A stretch of DNA of 10,259 bases from a virus: UHGV virus genome UHGV-1653917; one strand, written 5' to 3'. Every line of letters begins with the position of its first letter. Position 1 is the first letter of the stretch. The notes beneath the pieces are model-generated. The model made no database searches. It was not told where the DNA came from and saw nothing but the letters and a program-made list of their open reading frames with translations. Below are positions 6,585 to 8,925 of the stretch, piece by piece. The position numbers and the translations under genes were made by a program.

Positions 6585-6910
6585 AAACCTTCCGCTGGAA
6601 AGTGAAACCCGGGATGGATGTGACATCGGCTCCTTCCGTCAGGGAGGTGCGCTTTGGTGATGGCTATTCCCAGCGTGCGCCTGCCGGGCTGAACGCTGAC
6701 CTGAAAACGTACAGCGTGACGCTGTCTGTCTCCCGTGAGGAGGCCACGGCGCTGGAGTCGTTTCTGGCTGAGCACGGGGGCTGGAAGGCCTTTCTGTGGA
6801 CGCCGCCTTATGGTTACAGGCAGATAAAGGTGACCTGCGCAAAATGGTCGTCGCAGGTCAGTATGTTGCGTGTTGAGTTCAGCGCAGAGTTTAAACAGGT
6901 GGTGAACTGA
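6581..6910 (+). CDS. M: Tail tip assembly protein (lambda gpM), 109 aa
   Basis: ATGA overlap with the H stop (6581-6584), with ggaggtgga RBS upstream. The translation MKTFRWKVKPGMDV...LRVEFSAEFKQVVN matches lambda gpM. Confidence 0.93.
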   Translation: MKTFRWKVKPGMDVTSAPSVREVRFGDGYSQRAPAGLNADLKTYSVTLSVSREEATALESFLAEHGGWKAFLWTPPYGYRQIKVTCAKWSSQVSMLRVEFSAEFKQVVN

Positions 6911-7608
6911 TGCAGGATATCCGGCAGGAAACACTGAATGAATGCACCCGTGCGGAGCAGTCGGCCAGCGTGGTGCTCTGGGAAATCGATCTGACAGAGG
7001 TTGGTGGAGAACGTTATTTTTTCTGTAATGAGCAGAACGAAAAAGGTGAGCCGGTCACCTGGCAGGGGCGGCAGTATCAGGCGTATCCCATTCAGGGGAG
7101 TGGTTTTGAACTGAATGGCAAAGGCACCAGTACGCGCCCCACGCTGACGGTTTCTAACCTGTACGGCATGGTCACCGGGATGGCGGAAGATCTGCAGAGT
7201 CTGGTCGGCGGAACGGTGGTCAGGCGTAAGGTTTACGCCCGTTTTCTGGATGCGGTGAACTTCGTCAACGGAAACAGAGACGCCGATCCGGAGCAGGAGG
7301 TGATCAGCCGCTGGCGCATTGAGCAGTGCAGCGAACTGAGCGCGGTCAGTGCCTCCTTTGTACTGTCCACGCCGACGGAAACGGACGGCGCTGTTTTTCC
7401 GGGACGTATCATGCTGGCCAACACCTGCACCTGGACCTATCGCGGCGATGAGTGCGGTTATCACGGTCCGGCGGTCGCGGATGAATATGACCAGCCAACG
7501 TCCGATATCACGAAGGATAAATGCAGCAAATGCCTGAGCGGTTGTAAGTTCCGCAATAACGTCGGCAACTTTGGCGGCTTCCTTTCCATTAACAAACTTT
7601 CGCAGTAA
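6910..7608 (+). CDS. L: Tail tip protein (lambda gpL), 232 aa, with Fe-S-binding Cys cluster
   Basis: TGATG overlap with the M stop (6908-6912). The translation MQDIRQETLNECTRAEQSASVVLWEIDLTEVGGERYFFCNEQ... matches lambda gpL, including the C-terminal cysteines (CTWTYRGDECGY...CSKCLSGC). Confidence 0.93.
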   Translation: MQDIRQETLNECTRAEQSASVVLWEIDLTEVGGERYFFCNEQNEKGEPVTWQGRQYQAYPIQGSGFELNGKGTSTRPTLTVSNLYGMVTGMAEDLQSLVGGTVVRRKVYARFLDAVNFVNGNRDADPEQEVISRWRIEQCSELSAVSASFVLSTPTETDGAVFPGRIMLANTCTWTYRGDECGYHGPAVADEYDQPTSDITKDKCSKCLSGCKFRNNVGNFGGFLSINKLSQ

Positions 7609-7612
7609 TCCC

Positions 7613-8356
7613 ATGACAGAGACAGAATCAGCGATTCTGGCGCACGCCCGGCGATGTGCGCCAGCGGAGTCGTGCGGCTTCGTGGTAAGCACGCCGGAGG
7701 GGGAAAGATATTTCCCCTGCGTGAATATCTCCGGTGAGCCGGAGGCGTATTTCCGGATGGCTCCGGAGGACTGGCTGCAGGCAGAGATGCAGGGTGAGAT
7801 TGTGGCGCTGGTCCACAGCCACCCCGGTGGTCTGCCCTGGCTGAGTGAGGCTGACCGGCGGCTGCAGGTGCAGAGTGATTTGCCGTGGTTGCTGGTCTGC
7901 CGGGGGGCGATTCATAAGTTCCGCTGTGTGCCGCATCTCACCGGGCGGCGCTTTGAGCACGGGGTGACGGACTGTTACACGCTGTTCCGGGACGCTTACC
8001 ATCTGGCGGGGATTGAGATGCCGGACTTTCATCGTGAGGATGACTGGTGGCGTAACGGCCAGAATCTCTATCTTGATAATCTGGAGGCCACAGGGCTGTA
8101 TCAGGTGCCGTTGTCATCAGCACAACCGGGCGATGTGCTGCTGTGCTGTTTTGGTTCATCGGTGCCGAATCATGCCGCCATTTACTGTGGTGATGGCGAG
8201 CTGCTGCACCATATTCCTGAACAACTGAGCAAACGAGAGAGGTATACCGACAAATGGCAGCGACGCACACACTCCCTCTGGCGTCACCGGGCATGGCGCG
8301 CATCTGCCTTTACGGGGATTTACAACGATTTGGTCGCCGCATCGACCTTCGTGTGA
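7613..8356 (+). CDS. K: Tail tip assembly protein (lambda gpK) with JAB/MPN metalloprotease-like and NlpC/P60-like domains; long form 247 aa from ATG 7613, classical shorter form from ATG 7757
   Basis: The frame is open from 7571 to TGA at 8354-8356. ATG 7613 lies 5 nt after the L stop and has a weak SD; ATG 7757 (MAPEDWLQ..) has ggagg 11 nt upstream and gives the 199-aa product of the classical lambda annotation. The JAMM-like motif HSHPGGLPWLSEAD and a downstream Cys/His region (DCYTLF ... NHAAIYCGDGELLHH) are present. Confidence 0.85.
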   Translation: MTETESAILAHARRCAPAESCGFVVSTPEGERYFPCVNISGEPEAYFRMAPEDWLQAEMQGEIVALVHSHPGGLPWLSEADRRLQVQSDLPWLLVCRGAIHKFRCVPHLTGRRFEHGVTDCYTLFRDAYHLAGIEMPDFHREDDWWRNGQNLYLDNLEATGLYQVPLSSAQPGDVLLCCFGSSVPNHAAIYCGDGELLHHIPEQLSKRERYTDKWQRRTHSLWRHRAWRASAFTGIYNDLVAASTFV

Positions 8357-8925
8357 AAACGGGGGCTGAAGCCATCCGGGCGCTGGCCACACAGCTCCCG
8401 GCGTTTCGTCAGAAACTGAGCGACGGCTGGTATCAGGTACGGATTGCCGGGCGGGACGTCAGCACGTCCGGGTTAACGGCGCAGTTACATGAGACTCTGC
8501 CTGATGGCGCTGTGATTCATATTGTTCCCAGAGTCGCCGGGGCCAAGTCAGGTGGCGTATTCCAGATTGTCCTGGGGGCTGCCGCCATTGCCGGATCATT
8601 CTTTACCGCCGGAGCCACCCTTGCAGCATGGGGGGCAGCCATTGGGGCCGGTGGTATGACCGGCATCCTGTTTTCTCTCGGTGCCAGTATGGTGCTCGGT
8701 GGTGTGGCGCAGATGCTGGCACCGAAAGCCAGAACTCCCCGTACACAGACAACGGATAACGGCAAACAGAACACCTATTTCTCCTCACTGGATAACATGG
8801 TTGCCCAGGGCAATGTTCTGCCGGTTCTGTACGGTGAAATGCGCGTGGGGTCACGCGTGGTTTCTCAGGAGATCAGCACGGCAGACGAAGGGGATGGTGG
8901 TCAGGTTGTGGTGATTGGTCGCTGA
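8254..8925 (+). CDS. I: Tail tip assembly protein (lambda gpI), 223 aa
   Basis: ATG at 8254 preceded by gagagagg. It overlaps the 3' end of K by 103 nt in a different frame, as in lambda. The translation MAATHTLPLASPGMARICLYGDLQRF... followed by a Gly/Ala-rich hydrophobic segment matches lambda gpI. Confidence 0.92.
   Translation: MAATHTLPLASPGMARICLYGDLQRFGRRIDLRVKTGAEAIRALATQLPAFRQKLSDGWYQVRIAGRDVSTSGLTAQLHETLPDGAVIHIVPRVAGAKSGGVFQIVLGAAAIAGSFFTAGATLAAWGAAIGAGGMTGILFSLGASMVLGGVAQMLAPKARTPRTQTTDNGKQNTYFSSLDNMVAQGNVLPVLYGEMRVGSRVVSQEISTADEGDGGQVVVIGR

Follow-up and report, generated by a model that had tools for sequence, protein, structure and literature searches.

The JAB and NlpC/P60 domains in the tail protein K were predicted to act on the ubiquitin-like gpI (Iyer, Burroughs and Aravind 2006; PMC1779556), and a published meeting report of 2025 described gpK as cleaving gpI. 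In virions, cryo-EM resolves gpI residues 134-222 only (PMC12617516), and gpK is not present in them (PMC10721106). A 2020 HHpred survey recorded just the peptidase domain in K, with "199 in total" (PMC7291167), and the lambda two-hybrid ORFeome, which was built from J02459, gave no tail partners for K (PMC3224144). The 199-aa form has been accepted at face value in several later studies. Phage 21 (UMO75434.1) and the lambda record PV340536 of 2025 (XSB40720.1) carry a K annotated at 744 nt, and PGAP gives the same length in all the E. coli genomes inspected, among them EMG2 with its lambda prophage (examples of the 247-aa protein are WP_000194780.1 and WP_000140762.1). At least 1,000 contigs encode a protein identical to the 247-aa K of lambda, which goes under the names C40 family peptidase or PAD1/JAB1-superfamily metalloprotease. 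The 199-aa K still stands in NC_001416, UniProt TIPK_LAMBD, DE3, HK630 and some recent lambda-hybrid records, and a third K start giving 636 nt is found in KT232076. The long K is thus already known from current pipelines and some lambda records, and its architecture and function are published. What is new here is that a G missing from J02459/NC_001416 explains the 199-aa K.

The DNA analysed here, a stretch of 10,259 nt referred to as the window, was compared with these systems. The 1-kb stretch around the K start showed 98.6% nucleotide identity to phage 21 and 96.7% to lambda, and related sequence was present in 4,329 out of the 5,426 complete genomes of E. coli. Judged by its sequence, the window comprises a block of tail genes from a lambdoid phage or prophage that is not lambda itself and is closest to phage 21. 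Its exact K protein was absent from a collection of 15 billion proteins, and the K of the window is only a new allele. K sits between L (PF05100) upstream and I (PF06805) downstream, which is the neighbourhood asked of TAPK (Table 1). The last 103 nt of K are overlapped by gene I in a different frame, and the PF06805 match in gene I is complete only if its start is ATG 8254 or ATG 8293. The gene I product is the probable substrate of K. Long ORFs were also seen on the minus strand at 6814-7692 and 7628-8032, and were treated as by-products of GC-rich coding sequence.

Table 1. Features of the L-K-I region, with positions in the window and the evidence for each.
Feature	Position	Strand	Evidence
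Gene L, minor tail protein L, 232 aa	6910..7608	+	ORF list; PF05100 Phage_tail_L E=2e-100
Gene L stop TAA	7606-7608	+	4 nt ahead of K start ATG 7613
Full-length K, 247 codons + TGA, 744 nt, ~28.2 kDa	7613..8356	+	profile, homologues, synteny, model; PGAP and phage 21 annotation
N-terminal 48-codon segment missing from classical 199-aa K	7613..7756	+	pLDDT 96-98; conserved residues; dN/dS 0.075-0.096
Predicted JAB/JAMM (MPN+) metalloprotease domain, ~residues 1-105	7613..7927	+	PF14464 52.1 bits; Foldseek matches
Glu19 GAG codon, predicted JAMM catalytic glutamate, motif P-A-E-S-C-G	7667..7669	+	Glu in 45/46 homologues and 48/49 diverged loci; aligned to PNEACG of PDB 2kks
GGAGG, Shine-Dalgarno-like element inside coding sequence (codons P43-E44-A45), ahead of internal ATG	7741..7745	+	-9.5 kcal/mol; kept in close relatives, absent in diverged loci
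G absent from J02459/NC_001416, between reference positions 14266 and 14267	7747	+	junction comparison
Internal ATG (Met49), classical lambda K start	7757..7759	+	classical annotation; not conserved as start
Predicted zinc-binding motif H68-S-H70-x7-S78-x2-D81	7814..7855	+	conservation among 46 homologues
Predicted NlpC/P60 (C40) cysteine peptidase domain, residues 111-224	7943..8284	+	PF00877 E=5e-13; MepS and Acd33800 matches
Gene I, N-terminal ubiquitin-like domain	8254..8925	+	ORF list; PF06805 match

The frame of K ends in the TGA at 8354-8356. An earlier note, made from the letters of this DNA, had described it as uninterrupted back to 7571, where TTG is the earliest start-type codon; it was found to be stop-free even to 7538, the preceding TGA being at 7535-7537. 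The ATG at 7613-7615 follows the L stop after the spacer tccc, which leaves 4 nt between stop and start, or the 5 nt of that note when counting starts at the final base of the stop. The 48 residues that the note had this ATG add were reproduced identically on translation, as was the gap of 148 nt (7609-7756) that it had given between L and the internal ATG 7757 under the short annotation. Its statement that ATG 7757 is the classical lambda start of a 199-aa K agrees with the annotation of reference lambda. A promoter scan of the L-K gap found none, and a single terminator-like hairpin at 7560-7576 was rejected as a terminator, being no better than chance. At the local base composition, 48 random codons would be stop-free with P ~0.16; the open frame is therefore unremarkable alone, and the significance of the extension rests on conservation. 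The duplex energy with the 16S tail was -9.5 kcal/mol at ATG 7757, with a GGAGG at a spacing of ~10-11 nt, and +0.7 kcal/mol at ATG 7613, which amounts to no Shine-Dalgarno site. The internal ATG does have the better site, as had been stated, and this difference counts against a long K.

The claim that the longer form completes a JAB/MPN domain was borne out by the Pfam profile Prok-JAB (PF14464, gathering cut-off 25 bits). The 247-aa form passed with 52.1 bits over residues 4-98, covering profile positions 4-103 of 114, whereas the 199-aa form stayed below threshold with 22.8 bits and reached profile positions 63-103 only, so that the profile does not align wholly within the short form. The zinc-binding motif HSHPGGLPWLSEAD forms residues 68-81 of the long K. 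In an alignment of 46 homologues of 33-58% identity, H68, H70 and D81 are invariant, and position 78 is Ser in 43 sequences and Thr in 3. The conserved N-terminal glutamate is found where the earlier note had expected it, within the 48-residue extension, as E19 lies 49 residues ahead of H68. For the second domain, PF00877 gave 49.3 bits (cut-off 23), residues 111-224 covering profile positions 1-105 of 105. Its putative catalytic residues C121 (7973-7975), H187 and H199 are kept in 45, 46 and 46 of the 46 homologues, respectively.

The 247-aa K was modelled with AlphaFold2 using the alignment of 46 sequences, which gave a pLDDT of 96.6 and a pTM of 0.91 and replaced a single-sequence model with a pLDDT of only 32. 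Residues 1-48 form a helix (3-15) and two strands (21-27 and 30-36) in this model, with a pLDDT of 96-98. When the N-terminal half was compared with the PDB by Foldseek, it matched P. furiosus JAMM1 (5ld9, and 5lda with SAMP2), 2kks, Rpn11, CSN5 and AMSH; for 5ld9, the TM-score on the target was 0.67 and the rmsd 2.6 over 109 columns. The C-terminal half matched MepS and other NlpC/P60 proteins. Independently of the model, phmmer aligned K residues 7-106 to 2kks with the P-x-E-x-C-G motif included. Because the JAMM fold spans residues 1-48, the classical start would fall in the middle of a compact domain. Helix 1, the first beta-hairpin and the catalytic glutamate are thus predicted to come from residues 1-48, and the JAB domain could therefore probably neither fold nor act without this segment. 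The domain is very probably a zinc metalloprotease using Glu19, His68, His70, Ser78 and Asp81, an activity that is predicted from these features, and going by homology and the meeting report, K would remove the N-terminal ubiquitin-like domain of gpI in tail-tip assembly.

The conservation of the extension was followed first in homologues and then in close relatives. An exhaustive HMMER search gave 2,786 K homologues, and in full-length ones of 230-260 aa and 34-59% identity, query residues 2-12 align to their own residues 2-15. Among the extension columns of the 46-sequence alignment, no variation occurs at G22 and N38, and P17, E19, C21 and F47 are each kept in at least 90% of the sequences. 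In 84 close loci, representing 67 distinct haplotypes or 68 with the window, ATG 7613 is invariant. Stops or frameshifts in the upstream segment, which the earlier note had named as evidence against a long K, were seen neither in these 84 close loci nor in 49 diverged ones. The codon-position pattern that the same note had proposed to examine was of the coding type, the variable sites of the extension in the 68 close haplotypes being distributed 7/2/15 over the three positions. In two pairs of ~85% nucleotide identity, the dN/dS was 0.075 and 0.096 for the extension and 0.10 and 0.13 for the rest of K. Judged by these substitutions, the extension is under coding-type purifying selection like the rest of K.

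The 49 diverged loci had been found with a 7-sequence alignment and show 44-76% protein identity; they come from Citrobacter, Morganellaceae, Gilliamella, Pasteurellaceae, Eikenella and others. All 49 have an ATG between -12 and +9 nt from the position aligned with M1. An ORF homologous to L lies upstream in 45 of them (none in the sequence covered for the other 4), and in these 45 its stop directly precedes the ATG, mostly by a few nt and by no more than ~60 nt. The gap between stop and start is 4 nt in the window, 5 nt in lambda and mostly 2-25 nt in the diverged loci, where the K frame often opens just 1-3 codons ahead of the ATG. The L-K pair thus has the marks of a coupled pair, namely a start near the upstream stop, its conservation and a weak or absent Shine-Dalgarno site. 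The conserved juxtaposition of stop and start together with the lack of a Shine-Dalgarno site at ATG 7613 points to translational coupling, in which ribosomes finishing L would reinitiate at ATG 7613, 4 nt past the stop.

The same loci bear on a start at TTG 7571, which would give a K of 261 aa overlapping the last 38 nt of L and would have in its favour that no start-type codon precedes it in the open frame. It has no real Shine-Dalgarno site (-1.7 kcal/mol). Lambda and many relatives have one A more at the L stop (TAAATCCC vs TAATCCC), which puts the TTG out of frame with K, and it is therefore not a conserved start; in lambda, the ORF from this TTG is a separate frame of 55 aa. Homologues have 0-8 residues ahead of the M1 position, with one outlier of 16, and many diverged loci open the K frame only at or just before the ATG. 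On the weak Shine-Dalgarno site, the lambda frame and the N-termini of homologues, this start was rejected, and we regard its chance as practically negligible.

The earlier note had also suggested two isoforms, in which the 247-aa protein would be accompanied by a 199-aa product initiated at ATG 7757 through the GGAGG, with the NlpC/P60 domain intact and an inactive JAB remnant having a function of its own. The duplex at ATG 7757 is strong, and this ATG is present in 67 of the 68 close haplotypes, nearly all of which also keep the GGAGG. However, duplexes of -8 kcal/mol or better occur at ~7% of all window positions, and the spacing of the GGAGG is long. The GGAGG is also part of CCG GAG GCG, encoding Pro43-Glu44-Ala45, of which Pro43 is conserved, and coding alone would largely explain it. 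In 47 of the 49 diverged loci, the codon aligned with Met49 encodes Ile or Val (ATT, ATA, ATC, GTT or GTC), and the two that have ATG there lack a Shine-Dalgarno site; in the 46-sequence alignment, the column has Ile in 34 and Met in 6. According to the model, the 199-aa start would lie well inside the JAB fold, after the strand 30-36 and before the helix 51-60, leaving ~57 residues that would probably be unable to fold alone. Conservation thus gave the suggestion no support, as no diverged locus has a Shine-Dalgarno site at this position, and we consider two isoforms unlikely. A narrower form, in which the GGAGG and ATG 7757 would yield a JAB-less 199-aa isoform in Escherichia lambdoid phages only, for a separate step dependent on NlpC/P60, appears slightly less likely again; if true, the classical K would be a real minor product and not purely an artefact. 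ATG 7757 is most likely merely an internal methionine.

The origin of the short K was traced to the lambda reference itself. At 10 nt ahead of the classical ATG, the junction in NC_001416 reads CCGGAGGC-TATTTCC, as against CCGGAGGCGTATTTCC in other sequences; in longer form, NC_001416/J02459 has CCGGAGGC-TATTTCCGTATG, and the window, lambda imm21, DE3 and the EMG2 lambda prophage have CCGGAGGCGTATTTCCGTATG. Consequently, the NC_001416 ORF from ATG 14133 agrees with the long K over its first 45 residues (MTQTES...GEPEA), beyond which it runs in another frame and ends after 76 aa in total. The missing G breaks the long ORF, and the start of the 199-aa K would therefore have been placed at the following ATG in frame that has a good Shine-Dalgarno site. 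The G-less junction was found in 4 of 122 phage records, namely J02459, NC_001416, OR474059 (which is unannotated) and OR974322. Among the loci examined that have a lambda-type junction, 69 carry the G and 2 lack it, and many of the 69 are independent de novo assemblies. OR474059 and OR974322 are collinear with the J02459 coordinates, which suggests reference-derived assemblies; strictly speaking, a real G-less lambda stock could still lie behind them. The simplest explanation would be that the 1982 sequencing dropped one base, possibly through a compression in GGCG, and that no difference between strains is involved. New England Biolabs' notes on the lambda sequence reportedly give a G inserted at 14266 as compared with J02459. 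The literature search brought up no paper explicitly stating the K start or the missing G; it did not reach lambda ribosome profiling or the Casjens and Hendrix review, and within that scope gave no direct protein-level evidence for the N-terminus of K.

If the classical annotation were right, K would be the 199-aa form only and 7609-7756 an untranslated spacer that is open by chance. Such a spacer would fit the better Shine-Dalgarno site of ATG 7757 and the probability of the open frame taken alone, and the start is the one used by reference lambda, UniProt TIPK_LAMBD and many records. Against it, the extension is under purifying selection, several of the residues best conserved across the family lie in it, it is required for the JAB profile and fold, and distant homologues all start directly after L. 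Moreover, the break of frame in the reference is a single-base difference that is seen almost only in the 1982 sequence. A 199-aa K alone is thus highly improbable. These results together suggested, with a confidence that we place very high, that K is the 744-nt gene starting at ATG 7613 and encoding one protein of 247 residues with two protease domains, and that the 199-aa K from ATG 7757 is an annotation artefact; it has been copied by similarity into related records, among them records whose DNA has the G.

The value of this finding lies in the curation of NC_001416 and UniProt TIPK_LAMBD, where the reference K is without the catalytic glutamate and a third of the JAB domain, and cloning, modelling or mutating lambda K from the reference record would yield a truncated enzyme. 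Since the cause is a single missing G, its correction mends both the sequence and the annotation.

Compared with known systems, the K of the window is nearest to the lambda TAPK K in its 247-aa annotations, with which it has in common the L-K-I-J neighbourhood, the architecture, the length of 744 nt and the start right after L; the K proteins so annotated are 96-98% identical to it, with no substantive difference. The classical lambda K (J02459 AAA96551.1, NP_040598.1, TIPK_LAMBD) shares the C-terminal 199 residues and the NlpC/P60 domain, but is without residues 1-48 and does not reach the Pfam threshold for JAB. E. coli MepS (8xup) and C. difficile Acd33800 (9ubf) have the papain-like fold and the Cys-His-His triad in common with K; unlike them, K is cytoplasmic and belongs to phage assembly, with no cell-wall targeting domain or signal peptide evident. 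[quoted passage not shown] K scores far below the equivalog threshold of desampylase (30.9 bits vs 130), and it differs from these isopeptidases in that a minimal domain of ~105 residues is fused to an NlpC/P60 peptidase. The ubiquitin-like domain that K would remove is translationally fused to its substrate, whereas the one acted on by JAMM isopeptidases is conjugated.

The N-terminal part of the tail-assembly protein K (247 aa in its long form) is matched by two PHROGs families. The phrog_7305, a family of unknown function with 76 positions, matches K residues 1–76 with 173 bits (window 7613–7840), and the phrog_2635, a tail protein family of 135 positions, matches K residues 1–132. Both families look like having been built from truncated or split annotations of K. 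The spacer between K and the upstream minor tail gene L is 4 nt in the window and 5 nt in lambda, as set by a single-nucleotide indel at the stop codon of L (window 7606–7612), which reads TAATCCC in the window and phage 21 and TAAATCCC in lambda (loci L002 and L006). The same indel decides whether the upstream TTG at 7571 is in frame with K. A terminator-like hairpin was also located in this region; because one such structure was found against 0.5 expected in shuffled sequence, its occurrence was considered as probably due to chance.

Coordinates of the hairpin, gene I and the lambda-type contigs
Feature	Location	Remarks
Terminator-like hairpin followed by T-rich tail	window 7560–7576	inside the end of gene L
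Gene I	window 8254–8925	candidate starts ATG 8254, ATG 8293 and GTG 8353
Low-coverage contigs with lambda-type K	loci L095–L107, L114, L116, L120	from genome contig search

The annotation fault in the downstream tail gene I was found to be opposite in direction to that in K. The annotation pipeline PGAP and the 2025 lambda record PV340536 start gene I at the GTG overlapping the K stop (GTGTGA), giving a product of 190 aa. On this form, the Pfam profile Lambda_tail_I was matched at positions 26–83 only (68.8 bits), and positions 2–83 (100 bits) were covered by the classical 223-aa product or by a 210-aa form starting from Met14. A strong Shine-Dalgarno site (−9.3 kcal/mol) precedes the ATG at 8254, and GTG 8353 lacks one. 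Thus, the longer form seems to be required for the ubiquitin-like domain of the gene I product, and by implication the 103-nt overlap of K and I is real.

The lambda-type K, 98% identical to the window protein, was also detected on low-coverage contigs, several of them ∼48.4–48.5 kb, of assemblies whose labels include Neobacillus, Pseudoxanthomonas, Pseudomonas, Shewanella, Bradyrhizobium, Paenibacillus, and Enterococcus, among others. This looks like contamination by lambda control DNA. The G that is absent from the reference lambda record J02459 is present in all these contigs. Furthermore, the lambda record KT232076.1 (L092, locus 713–1348) annotates K as a CDS of 636 nt (211 aa) that starts 108 nt further downstream than the ATG that follows L, and with this third start, three different K starts are circulating for identical DNA.
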